Of a stretch of DNA of 64,000 bases, positions 4,111 to 23,043 are shown one piece after another. The stretch lies in IMG/VR virus record IMGVR_UViG_3300048848_000007, positions 6,411-70,410 of that record; one strand, 5' to 3'. Position numbers and translations under genes: made by a program. The notes beneath the pieces were generated by a model. That model saw only the letters and a list, made by a program, of their open reading frames with translations. It was not told the DNA's origin and did no database searches. Position 1 is the first letter of the stretch. Each line of letters opens with the position of its first letter. The stretch comes from a virus.

Positions 4111-4126
4111 TGTTTCACGTGGAACA
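4111..4126. promoter_or_regulatory. parS: parS-like centromere site (TGTTTCACGTGGAACA)
   Basis: Full 16-bp match to TGTTYCACGTGRAACA. Intergenic, immediately after a stop codon and before a terminator. Confidence 0.8.
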
Positions 4127-6376: not shown

Positions 6377-6880
6377 ATGGTCATCAACGGCAAGACGCTA
6401 TACGAGCTGGCCCCAATCAAGAACATGATCGCTGGCAAGGACACCGCCCATGGCACCAGCTATGGGCTGGGTGAAGCTGGCTACGATATCCGCATCAAGC
6501 AAGAGATCCGGTTTAAGCCCCAGCATCTACGTAATGGCATCACCAAGTTCGTACACGAAGTAGACGGATGGGGTAACCCCGGACGCTTCTGTCTGGCCTC
6601 GGCCATCGAAGAATTCGAGATGCCGTACAACCTGACCGGCATCGTCCACGACAAGTCCACTTGGGCACGTCGTGGCCTGTCAGTCTTCAACACCGTCATC
6701 GAACCGGGCTGGTCCGGTTTCCTGACTCTGGAGCTGGTCTACCAAGGGGAAGGTGAACTCCTTATCCCTGCTGGTTCAGGCATCGCTCAGGTCATGTTCC
6801 ACGAGCTGTCGGACGAGGCGGCCTACAACGGCAAGTACCAGAACCAGAAAGACAAGCCAGTCCCTGCCAAGAAATCCTGA
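6377..6880 (+). CDS. dcd: dCTP deaminase (N4 gp26-like)
   Basis: AGYDIR, DKSTWARRGL, VIEPGWSGFLTLEL, IAQVMF, YNGKYQNQ motifs. Confidence 0.92.
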   Translation: MVINGKTLYELAPIKNMIAGKDTAHGTSYGLGEAGYDIRIKQEIRFKPQHLRNGITKFVHEVDGWGNPGRFCLASAIEEFEMPYNLTGIVHDKSTWARRGLSVFNTVIEPGWSGFLTLELVYQGEGELLIPAGSGIAQVMFHELSDEAAYNGKYQNQKDKPVPAKKS

Positions 6881-6958
6881 TTGTTTTCTTGGATTGAAAA
6901 ACCCCTGAATCAAATAGGTAGTCGCTGCCTTTTCAGCGACATTACTGGAGAAGTACCC

Positions 6959-7171
6959 ATGGCATTTACCAAACTGAAATCTGGCGGTCAGCGTGTTCGT
7001 GTCGATCTGGCGAAGGTGGTTTACTTCACCGAGCTGGAAAGCGGCAGCACCTCGCTCAGCTTCATCAACGGCGACACTCTGGTCGTCGAAGAATCCTTCC
7101 AGACCGTCAGCAACCGTGCCAACGGTTCGGGCGAAGTGACCGCTGCTGTCTCGGTCGCTGAAGGCGCGTAA
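6959..7171 (+). CDS. Small hypothetical protein (FlbD-like beta pattern)
   Basis: GGAG Shine-Dalgarno; FTKL...VDLAKVVYF...TSLSFINGDTLVVEESF resembles the FlbD-like small-protein pattern. Confidence 0.6.
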   Translation: MAFTKLKSGGQRVRVDLAKVVYFTELESGSTSLSFINGDTLVVEESFQTVSNRANGSGEVTAAVSVAEGA

Positions 7172-7190
7172 GATTCCTGCCGGAACGCCT

Positions 7191-7450
7191 GGTCACCGTA
7201 AGTGACCCCGATGCACCTGTGCTGATTCACAGGCTGCATTGGTCAGGTAGCAGAGCTGCTCGGAGCAATATCATTCACCCCATGTGTAAGCCCTGCAATG
7301 CGCAGGCTTGTGGTAAGTAAGCTCAGAGCTGAAATGGTGATCTATGGTTTGTGGTTCGATTCCACTCGCTGGCAGTCAGGGGGACGCCCTGTGCTGCTAC
7401 CTGAACCAATGCAGCTTTCCCAATGAGAGAACTCCGGTTCTCTCTTTTTT
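7191..7450 (+). ncRNA. Putative structured ncRNA with a long closing stem and a tRNA-like T-arm
   Basis: 7233-7253 pairs with 7394-7415 (21 bp, one bulge). Internal hairpins include GTGG-TTCGATT-CCAC (7351-7365). Ends in a terminator. No plausible + strand ORF. Confidence 0.6.
7425..7450 (+). terminator. Rho-independent terminator
   Basis: GAGAGAAC-TCCG-GTTCTCTC followed by T6. Confidence 0.85.
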
Positions 7451-7732
7451 ATCGAGCCGGTTGGGAATGGCTGACTAGCGAAGGCGAAGCCGGAGTCTGT
7501 CTGGCATTCACGACTGGCCGCTGCCGCAGGCGACGTTCAGCTGACCCACTGCGGTGTGCCATGAGATACATAGAAGGGATGAGTTTCACCCCTATGTAAA
7601 TCAATGACTTAGACAGGGGGGTTCGTTCATCTGGATGAACACACCCCTGTTCAAATCCGAGTGCTATATCAGCCTGTATGTGCGCTATGCTATTCATGCT
7701 GTTCACTATCTCACAGACGTAGAGACACCATC
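7451..7732. other. Putative plasmid-type origin/operator region upstream of rep
   Basis: Non-coding; imperfect inverted repeats at 7569-7596 and 7613-7650; sits directly upstream of a Rep homologue. Confidence 0.45.
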
Positions 7733-8224
7733 ATGAGCGACCAGAAACCTGTGCGGTATCACCAATCCCCGGTACGGGGTACATGGGTTCAGACTGAGCG
7801 TGCAGGCCATGAGGCATGGGCAGCACTCACTCAGGCAAGCCCCAAGGCTGCCCAGCTGATGCACGTGCTCGTTGCCAACATGGATGAGAAGGGTGCCTTG
7901 GTGACCAGTCACAAGGTCTTGGCAGAGCTGTGCAGCGTGTCGGTCATGACCATACGCCGTGCAGTCGATACCCTGACCAAGCTCAATTTCATCCAGACCA
8001 TTCGCATCGGCAGTGAACGGGGTGGTGCCTTGGCCTACATCGTCAACAGCCGTATCGCATGGGCGGACAAGCGAGCCAACATCCGCTACGCCAAATTCAG
8101 TGCCACCGTGCTGGTATCGTCTGAAGAACAGAACGTCCTCGACGGTCCCCCACTCCGTCAGATCCCCCGCATTCAGGTCGAAGAAGACCTGGAACAGACT
8201 CTTGAGTTAACCGCAGTGCAATAA
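7733..8224 (+). CDS. rep: Plasmid replication initiator protein, pBBR1 Rep-like (winged HTH)
   Basis: GTWVQTERAGHEAWAAL...LMHVLVANM...HTH...AYIVNSRIAW...FSATVLV...LRQIP parallels pBBR1 Rep as recalled (GHWVQTERKAHEAWAGL...AYVVNDRVAW...FSAAVVV...LRRIP). Confidence 0.82.
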   Translation: MSDQKPVRYHQSPVRGTWVQTERAGHEAWAALTQASPKAAQLMHVLVANMDEKGALVTSHKVLAELCSVSVMTIRRAVDTLTKLNFIQTIRIGSERGGALAYIVNSRIAWADKRANIRYAKFSATVLVSSEEQNVLDGPPLRQIPRIQVEEDLEQTLELTAVQ

Positions 8225-8232
8225 GGTGAGCC

Positions 8233-8421
8233 GTGAGTAATGAAGTAAGAGAAGTCTGGGAAGACGCCTACAGTCGTGGCGTCGTTGCCCGCAATGAAAA
8301 CCGCCCCAAGGTTCAACCCAAATCCTTTAACAAGAACTTCTATTACTGGCTCGCCGGATGGAATGACCGTGACATGGAATTGGAGAACCAAGGGATCAAC
8401 GAGGAATGCAGTAATGGTTGA
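8233..8421 (+). CDS. Rmf-like small protein
   Basis: AYSRG...P...WLAGW pattern parallels ribosome modulation factor (AYQRG...CP...WLGGW). Confidence 0.5.
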   Translation: MSNEVREVWEDAYSRGVVARNENRPKVQPKSFNKNFYYWLAGWNDRDMELENQGINEECSNG

Positions 8422-8608
8422 TACCCATGAAGTCTTGCAGTTCACCTATACCAACCATCGTGGCGAAACAGCGAAGCGTCGTGTGATGCCCGAGCGTATC
8501 TACTTCGGTACTACGCCTGATCATCCTCAACCTACTTGGTTGATGACGTCCTACTGCTTCGACCGTCAGGCGCAACGCACCTTCGATCTGAAGAAAATGG
8601 TGTTCTGA
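8414..8608 (+). CDS. Stand-alone WYL-domain protein (64 aa)
   Basis: FTYTNHRGETAKRRVMPERIYFG...WLMTSYCFDRQAQRTFDL follows the WYL-domain pattern; no HTH. Confidence 0.72.
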   Translation: MVDTHEVLQFTYTNHRGETAKRRVMPERIYFGTTPDHPQPTWLMTSYCFDRQAQRTFDLKKMVF

Positions 8609-9144
8609 TGAAGAAGCCGATGACGTTGCCCAGCTGGATGACGAAAGTTATCAAGCCGGGGCATATCACCCAAAGCTCCATGGATGCAGGCCATCTCGTT
8701 CTTCTGTTGGCTCTGAGCCTGCGACTTCACGACAGTGCCGATGAGATCCGTGATCTGTGCCGTCGTGTGCAACCTCAAGTGCCGATGGGCATGGTGCCCA
8801 ACATGAAGCGTCTGGCTCGTGAGCCGGATGACGAGAAGGTCTTCGAGGCTGCCCTGCTGATCATCAACAAGGGCTGCATGAAGATGGGCATAGCACCGGA
8901 TGTGGTCTTTGTCCGCAACGATGCTGAACCAGAGAAACCACCCTTCCTCACCGAAGATGAAGTCATGGACCAGCTCAAGGTCATGGCTGCCGAGATCTCT
9001 GATGCAACCACCTTGGCCCGTCTGATTAATGAGATGGTCGATAACGTGCCCGAGCATATGAAGGGCGCACTCTATGTTGTGGCGGGGTCCAAGAACCCCC
9101 GTGCCACTATTCACGCTGCTGTAAGGGATTATCAATATGGCTGA
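8608..9144 (+). CDS. Hypothetical protein (178 aa)
   Basis: TGATG coupling with the WYL gene. Confidence 0.7.
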   Translation: MKKPMTLPSWMTKVIKPGHITQSSMDAGHLVLLLALSLRLHDSADEIRDLCRRVQPQVPMGMVPNMKRLAREPDDEKVFEAALLIINKGCMKMGIAPDVVFVRNDAEPEKPPFLTEDEVMDQLKVMAAEISDATTLARLINEMVDNVPEHMKGALYVVAGSKNPRATIHAAVRDYQYG

Positions 9145-18447: not shown

Positions 18448-21093
18448 ATGGCGTACCTGCATTATTCGGCCGAAGAGAAATCCGAGTACCCCTTGGTCTT
18501 GCTGACCTCGACGATCCGCAAGGACGAAATCAAGAAGTGTTATCTGGACCCATACGAATGGATGGACCCGGATGACTTGATGGTGTTCTCTCTGCATCAG
18601 GCTCCGGGGAAGAAGAAGACCCCCATGGGCGAGATGCGACAGTTCATCGCCGAAGAGCTGGTGCCACTGCTGGAGCAGATGAAAACCCAGTACGTGCTGG
18701 TGGCTGACGCCGAATACTTCAAGGCACTCACCAAGCTGGCGAAGGCTGATCCCTATCTGGGCTACGTCAACGACAGTGCCTATGGCAGTTTCAAGGTCAT
18801 CTATGTGCCCAACTACCGGCAGATGTTTTATGACCCTCTGAAGGTGACCAAGGGCATTGCCCAAGGTGTCACCGCTCTGCGGGACCATGCCACTCAGGTT
18901 TACGACGATCCGGGAGCCAACATCATCCACTTCGCCGAGTACCCTCGTACCTACGAGGCTATTAAGGCGTGGCTGGTCCGACTGCTGGAGATGGACACTC
19001 CGCTGACCATCGACCTTGAGTGCTTCAGTCTGAAGCACCACAAGGCCGGTATCGGCTCCATGTCCATTGCGTGGAACAAGCATGAAGGCATTGCCTTCCC
19101 GGTGGACTGTATAGAAATCCCAGGGGCCGAGAAGGCACCGTTCCTGCTGAACCAACGGAATGAAGAACTCCGGGCCTTGCTCAAGTGGTTCTTCATCCAG
19201 CTCAGCAAGAAGGCGATCTACCACAACATCGCGTTCGACGTGTACGTGCTGATCTACGAGCTGTTCATGAAAGACATTCTGGACACGGAGGGCTTGCTCG
19301 AAGGTCTGGAAGTCATGCTCAGGAACTGGGATTGCACCAAGCTGATCAGCTATCTGGCGACCAACTCGTGTGCAGGCAACAAGCTCAGTCTCAAGGACCA
19401 GGCTCAGGAATACGCCGGTAACTACGCGGTCGATGAGATCAAGGACATTACCCGCATCCCGATGGACAAGCTGCTGACCTACAACCTGGTGGATTCATTG
19501 TCCACTTGGTTCGTGCATGAGAAGCGCTTTCCCGGCATGGTGCAGGACCAGCAACAGGACTTCTACCAGAACATCTTCCAGCCAGCGACACTGGATGTAG
19601 TCCAGATGCAGCTGACGGGAATGCCGGTCAACATGCACCGGGTTCTGGAAGTGGAGAAGCTGCTGGAAGCTGACCGCAAGTCGGCTGTCGATCGGATGGA
19701 TGCTTCACCGATCATCCAGCAGTACCAGCACAAACGAAAGGAAGACTGGGTACGCACCAAGAATGCCGAGTGGAAGAAGAAGGTAGGCACCCTCGCTGAC
19801 GCTGAAGCAGAAATGCTGAAGAAGAAGTCCGTGGTCCGCTGGAATCCCAACTCACCCCCTCAAGTGCAGGAAATCCTGTACGAGATTTTGGGCCTGCCGG
19901 TCATCAGCTTCACGGACAGCAAACAGCCGTCCACCGATGCTGACACCCTCAAGGCACTGAAAAATCATACCGAGAACCAAGGGGTCAAAGACCTGTTGGA
20001 TGCTCTGCTGGATTTTGCCAGTGTCTCGACGATCATCCAGACGTTCATCCCTGCTCTGAAGAACTCAGCCAAGGGACCGGATGGCTGGCACTACATGTTC
20101 GGCAACTTCAATCTGGGGGGCACCGTCTCTGGGCGGCTGTCATCCAGCAAGCCGAACATGCAGAACCTGCCTGCCAACTCCAAGTACGCCAAACTGATCA
20201 AGACCTGCTTCCAAGCCCCACCGGGCTGGTTGCTCATGGGTCTGGACTTTGCTTCGCTGGAAGACCGGATCAGTGCTCTGACCAGTAAAGACCCCAACAA
20301 GCTGAAGGTGTATACCGATGGTTACGACGGTCACAGTCTGCGGACGTTTGCTTACTTTCCAGATGGTTGCATTGGAATTATCGATACGGTCGAGTCTATC
20401 AACTCCATCCAGGAAAAGTACCCGGACCTGCGATACCAGTCCAAGGCTCCGACCTTTGCACTCACTTATCAGGGCACATACAAAACCCTGATGACCAACT
20501 GCGGTTTCAGCGAATCGAAAGCCAAAGCGGTAGAGAAAGCGTATCACGAGCTTTACCATGTCTCGGACAGCTGGGTCGCTGCAAAACTGGATCAAGCGTC
20601 CAAAGACGGGTACATTACTGCCGCTTTCGGGCTGCGGGTTCGTACCCCTCTACTGCATCAGGTCATCCGTGGCAACCGTCAAACACCGTTCCAAGCAGAA
20701 GCCGAAGGTCGTACCGCAGGCAATGCTCTGGGTCAAAGCTGGTGCCTGCTCAACAGCAGGGCCGGTTCGGAATTCATGGGGAAAGTCAGGGCCAGTCGTG
20801 AGCACCGTCTCAAGATCCGTCCCTGTGCTCAGATCCATGACGCTCAATACTTCCTTGTTAAAGACGATATCGACACCGTGATGTTCGTGAATGAGCATCT
20901 GGTTACTGCTGTGAAATGGCAGGAGCATCCCGATATCGCCCACGATGAAGTAAAGCTGGGAGGCGACTTGTCGCTGTTCTACCCGGACTGGAGCAAAGAA
21001 GCCGTGATTCCAAATGAGGCATCGGCCGAGAAGATCCTTGAAGTCGTCCAGACTCACATGGATTGGATCGCTGCCGGTTGTCCGAAGCGCTAA
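18448..21093 (+). CDS. DNA polymerase, family A (N4 gp39)
   Basis: Exonuclease DLE and HNIAFD; TVSGRLSSSKPNMQN; motif A DFASLE; motif B KAPTFALTY; motif C QIHD. Confidence 0.96.
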   Translation: MAYLHYSAEEKSEYPLVLLTSTIRKDEIKKCYLDPYEWMDPDDLMVFSLHQAPGKKKTPMGEMRQFIAEELVPLLEQMKTQYVLVADAEYFKALTKLAKADPYLGYVNDSAYGSFKVIYVPNYRQMFYDPLKVTKGIAQGVTALRDHATQVYDDPGANIIHFAEYPRTYEAIKAWLVRLLEMDTPLTIDLECFSLKHHKAGIGSMSIAWNKHEGIAFPVDCIEIPGAEKAPFLLNQRNEELRALLKWFFIQLSKKAIYHNIAFDVYVLIYELFMKDILDTEGLLEGLEVMLRNWDCTKLISYLATNSCAGNKLSLKDQAQEYAGNYAVDEIKDITRIPMDKLLTYNLVDSLSTWFVHEKRFPGMVQDQQQDFYQNIFQPATLDVVQMQLTGMPVNMHRVLEVEKLLEADRKSAVDRMDASPIIQQYQHKRKEDWVRTKNAEWKKKVGTLADAEAEMLKKKSVVRWNPNSPPQVQEILYEILGLPVISFTDSKQPSTDADTLKALKNHTENQGVKDLLDALLDFASVSTIIQTFIPALKNSAKGPDGWHYMFGNFNLGGTVSGRLSSSKPNMQNLPANSKYAKLIKTCFQAPPGWLLMGLDFASLEDRISALTSKDPNKLKVYTDGYDGHSLRTFAYFPDGCIGIIDTVESINSIQEKYPDLRYQSKAPTFALTYQGTYKTLMTNCGFSESKAKAVEKAYHELYHVSDSWVAAKLDQASKDGYITAAFGLRVRTPLLHQVIRGNRQTPFQAEAEGRTAGNALGQSWCLLNSRAGSEFMGKVRASREHRLKIRPCAQIHDAQYFLVKDDIDTVMFVNEHLVTAVKWQEHPDIAHDEVKLGGDLSLFYPDWSKEAVIPNEASAEKILEVVQTHMDWIAAGCPKR

Positions 21094-21142: not shown

Positions 21143-21529
21143 ATGGAAAACAAAACTGAAGCCCCTGTTGAAAAACGCAAACACGTCTTCCTGTTCTCAG
21201 GTCAGGTCTACTTCCACCCGGACGCCGAAGGCAGCGAAATTGATGTGCAATCGGTTCACATGAACTGCGTTGGCATCTTCACCGAAGAAAAGGTGACTGC
21301 CCCGGAACTGGGCAAGATCCAGGCTCAGATGAGCCAGCAACTGCGTGCCCGTGTTCCAAATCCCATCACGGTCGTTGACGTGGTGTTCCACAGTGTCAAC
21401 CACATGGGTTACATGACCCCGGAAGAATGGGCCGGTACAACCGAAGCTCAGATCGCTGCGGGCATGAAAGAAGCTCAGGCAGTCATCGATCAGGTGCAAG
21501 CCTCGATCAACTCCAAGACCGTTCAGTAA
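21143..21529 (+). CDS. Hypothetical protein (128 aa)
   Basis: GGAG Shine-Dalgarno; N4-like synteny downstream of the polymerase. Confidence 0.72.
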   Translation: MENKTEAPVEKRKHVFLFSGQVYFHPDAEGSEIDVQSVHMNCVGIFTEEKVTAPELGKIQAQMSQQLRARVPNPITVVDVVFHSVNHMGYMTPEEWAGTTEAQIAAGMKEAQAVIDQVQASINSKTVQ

Positions 21530-22014
21530 TGTCGGGCGAGAAGAAGCTCTCGGAGCTTTATCCCCAGTATTACAAGCGTCTGCCTACTGACGTGAGTCGG
21601 GATGAAGTAGATACCTACGTCATCAACCTGATGTTCCCGGTCGAAGATCCCACTGGCTGCATCCTCCATGCCCGGAAGAAGCTGCTGATTCCTGGCGTCC
21701 GCAGCGGTGGCAAGACCATGCTCAAGGACGTGAAGGAAGCTCGGGACAGCCTCAACCGCTACATCGCCCTGATGGAAGCACAGGCTGAACCAATGGAATC
21801 AGGGGTCGCCGGGCAATCCATCACCATCTACGACACTTGGTACAGCCGAGCTGACGTGACCAAGATGCCGGGTTGCCTGCAACCACAGACATCAGTGGAT
21901 GTTGAGCTGGGTGACGGCACCATTGTACGTGCCAGCCGAGCAGGTGGTTTGGCATGGGATATGCCCGTCGAATCGCCGAAGCGGATCATCAAGTACCGCA
22001 TCCGCAAAGCCTGA
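21529..22014 (+). CDS. Conserved phage protein (161 aa)
   Basis: YYK...DPTGCILHARKKLL..G.RSGGK pattern; TAATG coupling. Confidence 0.72.
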   Translation: MSGEKKLSELYPQYYKRLPTDVSRDEVDTYVINLMFPVEDPTGCILHARKKLLIPGVRSGGKTMLKDVKEARDSLNRYIALMEAQAEPMESGVAGQSITIYDTWYSRADVTKMPGCLQPQTSVDVELGDGTIVRASRAGGLAWDMPVESPKRIIKYRIRKA

Positions 22015-22065
22015 ACCAAGGGGATCATCTACGGGTGGTCCCATTCCCATTCCTCTGGAGTTCTC

Positions 22066-23043
22066 ATGAAGATCACCAATACCTCCGATATCTCGCTTGC
22101 CTTAGCTGTATGGTTGATCCATGACGAGTACGACTACATCAACAAGCCGAAGTACATCTCGGCCACTTCGTTGATGAAGCCGTTACGCCAGATCATCCTC
22201 CCCCGTCGTATCCCTGTGGAAAAGCGTGAAGCGGATGTTGGTGACTTCATCGCTCGTGCTCTGGGTCATTCCATTCACGACTCCATCGAGAAGGCGTGGA
22301 AAAAAGGTTATCAGCGTTCCCTCAAACTGCTGGGGTATCCCGAGCACGTCATTGGACGAGTGCTGATCAACCCCACCAAAGAAGAGCTGATGGCTGCCAA
22401 AGATCCAATCCCCATTTACCTTGAGCAGCGTGCGTTCAAGGAAATCAACGGTTGGACCGTCGGTGGCAAGTTCGACATTGTGACCGAAGGCATCGTGCAG
22501 GACTTCAAGTCCACCAGTGCTTACACCTGGGTCTACGGTGGCCGGGACGATGAACATGCGTTGCAGGGTTCCCTGTATCGCTGGCTCAACCCAGATTTGA
22601 TCACCGAAGACTTCATCCAGATCAACTACATCTTCACCGACTGGCAGAAGTCACAAGCCCGCTCCAGTCCGAAGTATCCGCAGCGGCGTGTCGAGGCCAA
22701 GGAAATCCCTCTGCTGGATATCACCGAAACCGAGCGTTGGGTAACCGATCGACTCAACCTGATTGAGCGGTACGCTGATGCACCTGAGCATGAGCTGCCG
22801 GAATGTACTGCCGAAGAACTCTGGATGAGTGATCCGAAGTACAAGTTCTACGCCAACGCTGCCAACACCACTGGCCGCTCGACCAAGAACTTCGACAGCC
22901 TTGCCGACGCAAAAGCGTTTCAAGCCAGTAAAGGCGGCAAAGGTGCAATTCTCACTGTACCCGGTGAACCCAAGCGGTGTGGTTACTGCGAAGCGTTCGA
23001 CGTGTGTACCCAGAAGAATAAATATTTTTCTGACAATTCGTAG
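22066..23043 (+). CDS. PD-(D/E)XK exonuclease-like protein (N4 gp42)
   Basis: GKFD...DFKSTS...Q..LY; C-terminal RCGYCEAFDVC. Confidence 0.85.
   Translation: MKITNTSDISLALAVWLIHDEYDYINKPKYISATSLMKPLRQIILPRRIPVEKREADVGDFIARALGHSIHDSIEKAWKKGYQRSLKLLGYPEHVIGRVLINPTKEELMAAKDPIPIYLEQRAFKEINGWTVGGKFDIVTEGIVQDFKSTSAYTWVYGGRDDEHALQGSLYRWLNPDLITEDFIQINYIFTDWQKSQARSSPKYPQRRVEAKEIPLLDITETERWVTDRLNLIERYADAPEHELPECTAEELWMSDPKYKFYANAANTTGRSTKNFDSLADAKAFQASKGGKGAILTVPGEPKRCGYCEAFDVCTQKNKYFSDNS

Follow-up and report, generated by a model that had tools for sequence, protein, structure and literature searches.

A plasmid-type oriV-rep module, captured and trimmed, in the genome of an N4-like soil phage

The window analysed here is a 64,000-nt stretch of the IMG/VR virus record IMGVR_UViG_3300048848_000007, and all coordinates given for the phage are positions within it; the full record is a complete genome of 75,312 bp with direct terminal repeats. 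The locus under study (Table 1) comprises a rep gene, which is co-oriented with the surrounding genes of nucleotide metabolism and replication, and approximately 280 bp of DNA on its 5' side that is homologous to the rep-upstream DNA of plasmids and of metagenomic phage-like contigs. Elsewhere the window carries an ORF of 3,545 aa, the size of a virion RNA polymerase, which marks the phage as N4-like, and its nearest phage relatives are the Pseudomonas N4-like Schitoviridae Arace01, Zuri and phCDa (70-80% identity in patches). The phage also encodes its own family-A DNA polymerase (PolA) and a helicase, which bears out the original prediction of an N4-like phage with replication genes of its own. 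We therefore deal with an N4-like phage from soil with a Pseudomonas-type host. In a search of sequencing runs that included bacterial isolates, its DNA turned up only in one run of a soil metagenome, which is likely to be the source of the phage sequence; no isolate carrying the phage DNA was found among the isolate runs. Searches of the complete 75-kb genome revealed no match to ParA (PF01656) or ParB (PF02195) and no integrase, and no repressor was recognised among the genes neighbouring rep.

Table 1. Features in and around the rep locus (positions in the 64,000-nt window)
Feature	Position	Strand	Remarks
Segment replaced relative to Arace01	7419..8419	+	Captured cassette plus further sequence at the right end
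Terminator-like hairpin with T-tract	7425..7451	+	Directly before the module, just past the end of Arace01 homology (7418)
Origin hairpin, 63 nt	7456..7518	+	Invariant apex GACTAGCG...AGTCTGTC; bounds the oriV-rep module on its left in all relatives
GC-rich conserved block (GGCCGCTGCCGCAGGCGAC)	7519..7555	+	67-73% GC; conserved in plasmid and viral loci
AT-richer stretch	7559..7612	+	37-43% GC; candidate unwinding/bending region
Rep box (predicted)	7618..7657	.	Inverted 14-mers 7618-7631 (+) and 7634-7647 (-); third half-site 7644-7657 overlapping
Degenerate repeat remnants	7660..7715	+	Leftover 24-bp repeat units and TGTTAGATATCTAACA-type element (alignment)
rep	7733..8224	+	ATG start, 163 aa; tail-less initiator homologue, single winged-helix core ~18-104
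62-aa ORF	8233..8421	+	Inside the replaced segment; phrog_10492 (E 4e-8), a PHROG of unknown function

The ATG at 7733 is supported as the start of rep by homology that covers the N-terminal RGTWVQTERAGHEAWA region. The public call of the same ORF (P0002, 121 aa from Met43) is too short and omits this conserved region. The motifs on which the original prediction was based (WVQTER..HEAWA, HTH, AY.VN.R.AW and FSA) indeed fall where an alignment of 44 homologues is conserved to 90% or more, and the phage Rep also keeps MTIRR, with which the recognition helix begins. The AlphaFold (AF2) model (pLDDT 76.5) consists of a helix pair and one winged helix (residues 18-104), with the C-terminal third poorly ordered. 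Foldseek searches with this model returned only generic winged-helix DNA binders of the ArsR, MarR and TubR type with weak E-values (~1e-2), hence an initiator and a regulator are indistinguishable by fold here, and no solved structure for the Rep family was found in the structure search. The profile searches were similarly modest: the best Pfam match was HTH_36 (20.2 bits versus a cut-off of 25), with the remaining HTH matches lower and all of them sub-threshold, the Pfam RepL match (E 0.013) fell below its cut-off, the NCBIfam regulator profiles scored far under theirs, and the PHROGs search gave a weak lean to "replication initiation protein" (phrog_270, E 1.8e-5).

As opposed to these sub-threshold HTH matches, the homology to the Rep proteins of replicons is strong. 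The tblastn search with Rep against 72,556 plasmids matched 258 records, a homology well outside what chance would give. The top plasmid match was pAd12 of P. fragi (67% identity over aa 1-145, E 4e-61). Other matches include the P. aeruginosa plasmid Rsu2, typed IncP/MOBF/MPF_T, in which a rep gene annotated as "replication initiation protein" runs from base 1 (59.5% identity, E 2e-50), the IncP-9 plasmid pWW0 (56.6%, E 8e-45), the P. putida plasmids NC_004999.1 and NC_007926.1, which we take to be pDTG1 and NAH7 (55.5%), small plasmids of P. marcusii (~50%) and small alpha-proteobacterial plasmids of the wider Rep family (39-50%). In many plasmids of 1.8-9 kb from alpha- and gamma-proteobacteria and Bacillus the matching gene, often named RepL by NCBI, is the sole replication gene. 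A search of a set of 5.8 billion proteins yielded 311 homologues, and the phage Rep, at 55-78% identity, is a clear homologue of small winged-helix plasmid initiators from the superfamily that takes in the IncP-9, pBBR1 and "RepY" types. Among 50,697 phage records, there is besides the window a single Rep match, to a Burkholderia phage at 32%, and Arace01 has no Rep homologue; Rep is thus foreign to the N4-like backbone.

Members of this family have been characterized at the bench: replicases named "RepY", some 200 aa long and bearing a Pfam RepL domain, have proved functional in experiments, that of P. marcusii pMOS6 among them (PMC9025767). Because the homology is to initiators from experimentally defined replicons, we regard Rep as a genuine plasmid-type initiator homologue and not as a generic HTH regulator, the outcome that would have been damaging to the original prediction; judged by its sequence, it belongs by descent to a proven family of small plasmid initiators. 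The assignment to the pBBR1 family is therefore correct as far as homology to a plasmid initiator is concerned, but IncP-9-like or pAd12-like would be the more fitting name for the family. The Rep of pBBR1 from Bordetella bronchiseptica is more distant than the Pseudomonas relatives and is likened to the phage protein only through the literature on IncP-9, where the pBBR1 rep-oriV serves as outgroup, as a distant relative of the IncP-9 rep-oriV (PMC2885752).

A rooted ML tree, which had been proposed as a check together with the original prediction, places the phage Rep as sister to the L005/G001 copy (support 100/95); this pair joins L003 (98/83), and the resulting phage-borne trio is sister to a clade of pAd12-like plasmids and phage-plasmids, with the IncP-9 Reps as the other main clade. 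The IncP-9 replicons (pWW0, pM3/pMT2, Rsu2, pDTG1 and NAH7) resemble the phage module in a Rep that is 55-59% identical over residues 1-148, in the order of oriV followed by rep, and in the left-edge hairpin block of oriV, which is 83-89% identical in DNA. They differ in that the phage Rep lacks the final ~35 residues (the Pro-rich tail), that the phage Rep box (GGGGTTCGTTCATC) is absent from the oriV of pWW0 and Rsu2, and that the module resides in a phage of lytic type without a par, res or tra backbone. The pAd12-like plasmids and putative phage-plasmids (L003, L007, L012-L015 and G002-G005) are closer, with Reps of the same clade (62-78% identity), the identical repeat motif and the same order of hairpin and block. 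They possess, however, a full-length Rep and arrays in which 4-6 repeats follow one another every 24 bp, whereas the phage has one unit and no tail, and most of them have ParA (some also integrase), which the window phage lacks.

The origin DNA upstream of rep is better conserved than the gene itself: window positions 7452-7540 are 89% identical to Rsu2 and 7452-7552 are 83% identical to pWW0, compared with a DNA identity of 67% for rep. The hairpin in this block is supported by covariation. Across 14 distinct replicons and 20 pairs, 95.4% of the cells are paired, and compensatory double changes occur at 12 of the 20 pairs (39 cells); this was reached by 0 of 500 shuffles, and registers slid by 1-3 columns gave only 24-43% paired. 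The phage copy keeps 19 of the 20 pairs, and the invariant G-U pairs assign the hairpin to the rep-sense strand. No match for it was found in Rfam. The block begins at the identical base in every element, with or without res, and hence marks where the module naturally starts on its left. The idea that it is a fossil 3' end of a resolvase gene, since in pWW0 and Rsu2 its left edge extends over the 7 terminal codons of res, was rejected, as elements without res show the same start. A version of the hairpin with a short apex (GACTAGCGAAGTCTGTC, 12 nt shorter) occurs in L005/L017 (9661-9728), L020 and L023, where the outer stem is wholly re-written with complementarity kept.

On its left the module is preceded by the terminator-like hairpin, the T-tract of which runs into the start of plasmid homology at ~7447. 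Toward rep, the AT-richer stretch contains a match to the IHF consensus (7599-7611), one of 4 such matches in the 64-kb window and a pattern match only. In the predicted Rep box the inverted pair of 14-mers forms a perfect 16-bp palindrome, GTTCATCTGGATGAAC, which has no second copy anywhere in the 75 kb of the genome; pAd12 has exactly this 14-mer as its repeat, and the inverted pair recurs in L003, L005 and pAd12 itself. We found no small ORF in 7452-7706, where translated matches were exclusively frame-broken and relatives have no gene called, and neither Rfam nor tRNA searches of this interval gave a match. No sigma-70-like promoter was found near the module.

Relative to its homologues, the module is reduced both in its repeats and in its protein. 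A motif scan found 4-6 copies of the repeat in pAd12, L007 and L003, spaced by ~24 bp as is typical of iterons, versus 2 in the window, and what the phage retains is one full repeat unit, an overlapping half-site and degenerate remnants. The distance from the repeats to the start codon is 110-150 bp shorter in the phage than in its plasmid relatives. The median homologue is 189 aa long, and the tail of the homologous proteins, QLPxGxG..PPxQ..LPDLP, hardly varies. The phage Rep is devoid of this tail, as the original prediction had noted for the Pro-rich end, and carries a different end from about residue 151. We conclude that the tail was replaced and not frameshifted, because DNA homology ends at ~8166 and an unrelated end of 13 residues follows.

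The losses are sharply delimited. An alignment of 43 homologues has 62 columns with a conservation of 85% or more; the phage keeps the consensus residue at 53 of these, and the 9 misses all lie in the C-tail; in the core of Rep, 53 of 53 conserved positions are kept. Together with a dN/dS of ~0.1, this speaks against a degenerate remnant, which had been named as an outcome unfavourable to the original prediction. The pairwise dN/dS is 0.10-0.14 versus every relative, with dS saturated (at least 1.5) in all comparisons, so that selection within the N4-like lineage is inseparable from selection in earlier hosts; along the combined path rep has been under purifying selection, its nearest sampled relatives being diverged. 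The terminal branch of the phage Rep is ordinary (0.18) and the stem of the tail-less pair is long (0.35), which is compatible with a functional shift on that stem. As the alignments indicate, the oriV-rep module was captured and selectively trimmed, with the protein core, one perfect site and the origin hairpin left intact.

The place of capture can be delimited by comparison with Arace01. Window positions 7165-7418 correspond to Arace01 20177-20432 at 77% DNA identity and similarity resumes at 8420, and nothing in 7419-8419 matches Arace01. By this comparison the segment is a clean replacement, in which ~1 kb of phage DNA gave way to an oriV-rep module of plasmid or phage-plasmid type. The capture site is intergenic, between dcd and thyX and the replication genes. 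The flanking 7165-7418 is native non-coding DNA, long and structured, in which a perfect 22-bp stem (7233-7253 with 7394-7415) encloses ~140 nt; it has no tRNA or Rfam match. In Arace01 the counterpart of this region is followed by a tRNA-like sequence (T-arm and CCA end), and because a different sequence is thus carried there, the capture site is a variable hotspot. Arace01 additionally possesses a 205-aa gene (21464-22081) that is absent from the window phage. On the right-hand side, the 62-aa ORF has no counterpart in Arace01 or in related Rep loci. The 63-aa ORF that follows (8417-8608) matches the Arace01_00040 protein (148 aa) only over its last 62 residues; the N-terminal 85 codons of this homologue were evidently lost through the 1-kb replacement.

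The capture is not an artefact of assembly, because high-depth contigs cross each junction: in an independent assembly of the source run, a 14-kb contig (268x) spans 6800-7810 and a 5.5-kb contig (286x) spans 7793-9000. The assembly graph breaks only at a 42-mer of rep (7781-7822) that is common to two contigs of ~20x. These two contigs (52 kb and 20 kb), from the same soil, share with the phage the rep 42-mer and the hairpin core 7475-7538, and we therefore infer that related replicons co-occur with the phage in this soil. We also attempted to date the capture by GC3, and this proved non-discriminating, as the values for rep (0.665), the phage genes (0.68-0.735) and the donors (0.63-0.74) are close.

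The closest homologues of Rep are mostly found on phage-like contigs. L003, an ENA scaffold of 70,378 bp whose Rep is 77% identical by BLAST, encodes a PIF1-type helicase, PolA, YuA-like tail genes and lysis genes. Its locus (1-20546) contains a full-length Rep with the repeat array, ParA adjoining rep, and rep right after the helicase-PolA block; L003 may thus be a phage-plasmid with a DNA polymerase of its own. L013 and L014 combine ParA with tail genes and with proteins resembling P1 DarA, L007 encodes an integrase as well as, beside its Rep copy, an S24 repressor, and L012 and L015 are large phage-like contigs; a walk along L005 revealed only small genes of no assigned function. In IMG/VR, a scan with the single sequence found nothing and an alignment-based scan found eight viral contigs with the Rep family. 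The IMG/VR contig L023 (80,993 bp) combines ParA and integrase with a Rep of the same family; this contig and the P. fluorescens "plasmid" CP048608.1 probably represent one element, and the "plasmid" would then be a phage-plasmid.

Searches of whole records suggest that the presence of the tail goes along with the type of genome. The sister copy G001, also tail-less, lies in a 95%-complete viral genome of 82.7 kb that encodes its own PolA and has no ParA or integrase, so that both tail-less copies (the window and G001) are found in genomes with PolA and without ParA or integrase. The tail-bearing G002-G005 all have ParA, three of the four have integrase, and none has PolA. Altogether ParA accompanies 7 of approximately 10 tail-bearing contexts (L003, L013, L014 and G002-G005), three of them also with integrase; L007, L012 and L015 were seen in part, and those parts contain no ParA. 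The pattern rests on small numbers, namely 2 tail-less genomes versus 7 ParA-bearing contexts. An N4-type portal was found in none of the five Rep-bearing viral genomes G001-G005.

What could such a module do in a phage of this kind? Tentatively, and with nearly as much confidence as doubt, we favour the view that it is an origin-recognition unit co-opted for lytic replication. Dimers of Rep would bind the single palindrome ~100 bp upstream of rep, from which autoregulation would follow, and lytic phage DNA synthesis would gain an additional place to initiate or prime, formed by the palindrome with the hairpin and the AT-rich stretch next to it. From there replication would pass either to the enzymes of the phage, its helicase and PolA, or to DnaA/DnaB of the host. 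That tail and array are gone could then reflect a release from plasmid copy-number control and from recruitment of the host replisome, since polymerase and helicase are both supplied by the phage; the module would not be a plasmid-maintenance replicon. Several observations lead us to this view: Rep is homologous to initiators of proven replicons; the cognate cis DNA with its covarying hairpin is retained, and the Rep-box 14-mer, unique in the genome, matches the pAd12 repeat letter for letter; the core is intact, the losses are confined to the tail, the terminal branch is ordinary and dN/dS is low; rep lies amid replication genes, and the sister copy occurs in another PolA phage; and the seven tail-bearing copies co-occur with ParA, whereas the tail-less ones occur without it.

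Lambda O with the ori repeats and P1 RepL with oriL may be analogous, as site-specific phage DNA binders whose site lies beside or inside their own gene; the analogy is one of function. Lambda O and P1 RepL start vegetative replication and are essential for their phages, and to our knowledge N4-like phages normally lack any origin-binding initiator of this kind. The module must be non-essential to the N4 scheme, since related N4-like phages replicate without rep. Against a lytic origin it can be said that a lone palindrome resembles an autorepression operator, relatives carrying arrays, that the near-invariant tail which was lost may be the effector part, and that a terminator sits just upstream with no sigma-70-like promoter found. 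Furthermore, within N4-like phages the module is known from one metagenomic genome.

The same losses would also suit an agent of interference between elements, a function that we consider unlikely and that was among the alternatives of the original prediction (a weapon of incompatibility against resident plasmids). A Rep without the tail could bind the identical repeats of co-resident pAd12-like plasmids or phage-plasmids without initiating. In this way it might block, in dominant-negative fashion, a replicon that competes or that carries defences, or serve as protection from the Rep of that replicon. The identity of the Rep-box 14-mer to the pAd12 repeat, the conserved MTIRR start of the recognition helix, the disappearance of the tail from an otherwise intact DNA-binding core, and the related replicons in the same soil are all consistent with this. 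Blocking a plasmid, however, brings little evident gain within a single lytic cycle, the retention of the hairpin and the AT-rich stretch in cis is left unexplained, and the role of the tail as effector is an assumption.

It is rather more doubtful that the module is a neutral passenger without a role in the phage, brought in by illegitimate recombination at the intergenic hotspot from an unsampled donor in which it was already trimmed. The variability of the site, with the tRNA-like sequence and an extra gene nearby in Arace01, would agree with such an origin, as would the occurrence of the module in only one N4-like genome in the scans of phage records and IMG/VR, the partly decayed appearance of the repeat region, and the damage to the neighbouring gene, which lost its N-terminal 85 codons in the capture. 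The decay is selective, however, with the ORF core, the hairpin and the palindrome intact where the array and the tail are gone, and the sister lineage shows the same trimmed design in a different phage. Moreover, the genome size of tailed phages is limited by the capacity of the capsid, which disfavours useless DNA.

The original prediction preferred an initiator for an episomal state, and in this the results did not follow it. The phage would circularise via its terminal repeats, Rep and the origin would drive theta replication by the host replisome, and host ParAB would segregate the episome or carrier state via two parS sites. This would make it the first Schitoviridae phage that persists as an episome, a minimal phage-plasmid without partition genes of its own that borrows host ParAB, and we hold it to be improbable. 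The presence of a replicon-type module and of direct terminal repeats is in keeping with it, and so are two 16-mers (1011-1026 and 4111-4126), each with 1 mismatch from the chromosomal parS consensus TGTTCCACGTGGAACA; about 7e-4 such sites would be expected by chance according to our own arithmetic, and neither Arace01 nor phCDa nor any of the five other Rep-bearing viral genomes contains one. A conserved gene encloses the site at 1011, which took ~4 substitutions to arise and is derived in the phage lineage, as phCDa reads a non-palindromic sequence at the homologous codons. It is this co-occurrence of rep and parS-like sites that keeps the episome as a minority possibility. Phage-plasmids such as P1, N15 and SSU5-like elements, though, have their own partition system, whereas the window phage has two host-type parS-like sites, lacks ParA, ParB and integrase, and shows among the neighbours of rep no repressor module like the S24 gene beside the L007 copy. 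The array is down to one unit and the C-tail is gone, and it is precisely the tail-less form that is found in PolA phages without ParA, the tail-bearing forms mostly having it. In N4 infection the injected virion polymerase transcribes the early genes, so that it is hard to see how the lytic programme could be silenced, and the DNA occurs in one soil metagenome only, with no bacterial isolate that carries the phage. Least probable of all is a domesticated transcription factor that controls other phage genes: the single winged-helix fold with its weak ArsR/MarR/TubR-type neighbours and the position of rep in the middle-gene region would allow it, but the palindrome occurs only once, upstream of rep itself, so that autoregulation alone is evident, and the retention of the origin hairpin is left unexplained.

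The Rep family and the type of origin were already known; to the extent of our searches, the branch without tail and with few repeats, found in phages that encode a polymerase, is an undescribed variant, and in the literature we found no precedent for Schitoviridae with plasmid initiators or with phage-plasmid status. A replicon module in an N4-like phage indicates gene flow from plasmid-like elements into Schitoviridae, and the tail-less branch offers a testable case of a virus that may re-use a plasmid initiator. N4-like phages are regarded as strictly lytic and self-sufficient in replication, and it is partly for these properties that they are candidates for phage therapy and Pseudomonas biocontrol; an episomal state, if true, would change how their lifestyle is judged. 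The covarying hairpin that IncP-9 plasmids share with phage replicons might serve a function in such origins generally. The RepJ / REx-C module of P. syringae plasmids, which we also considered, belongs to a different, non-homologous family and is of conceptual relevance only, as an example of exchangeable replicon modules (PMC5304414).
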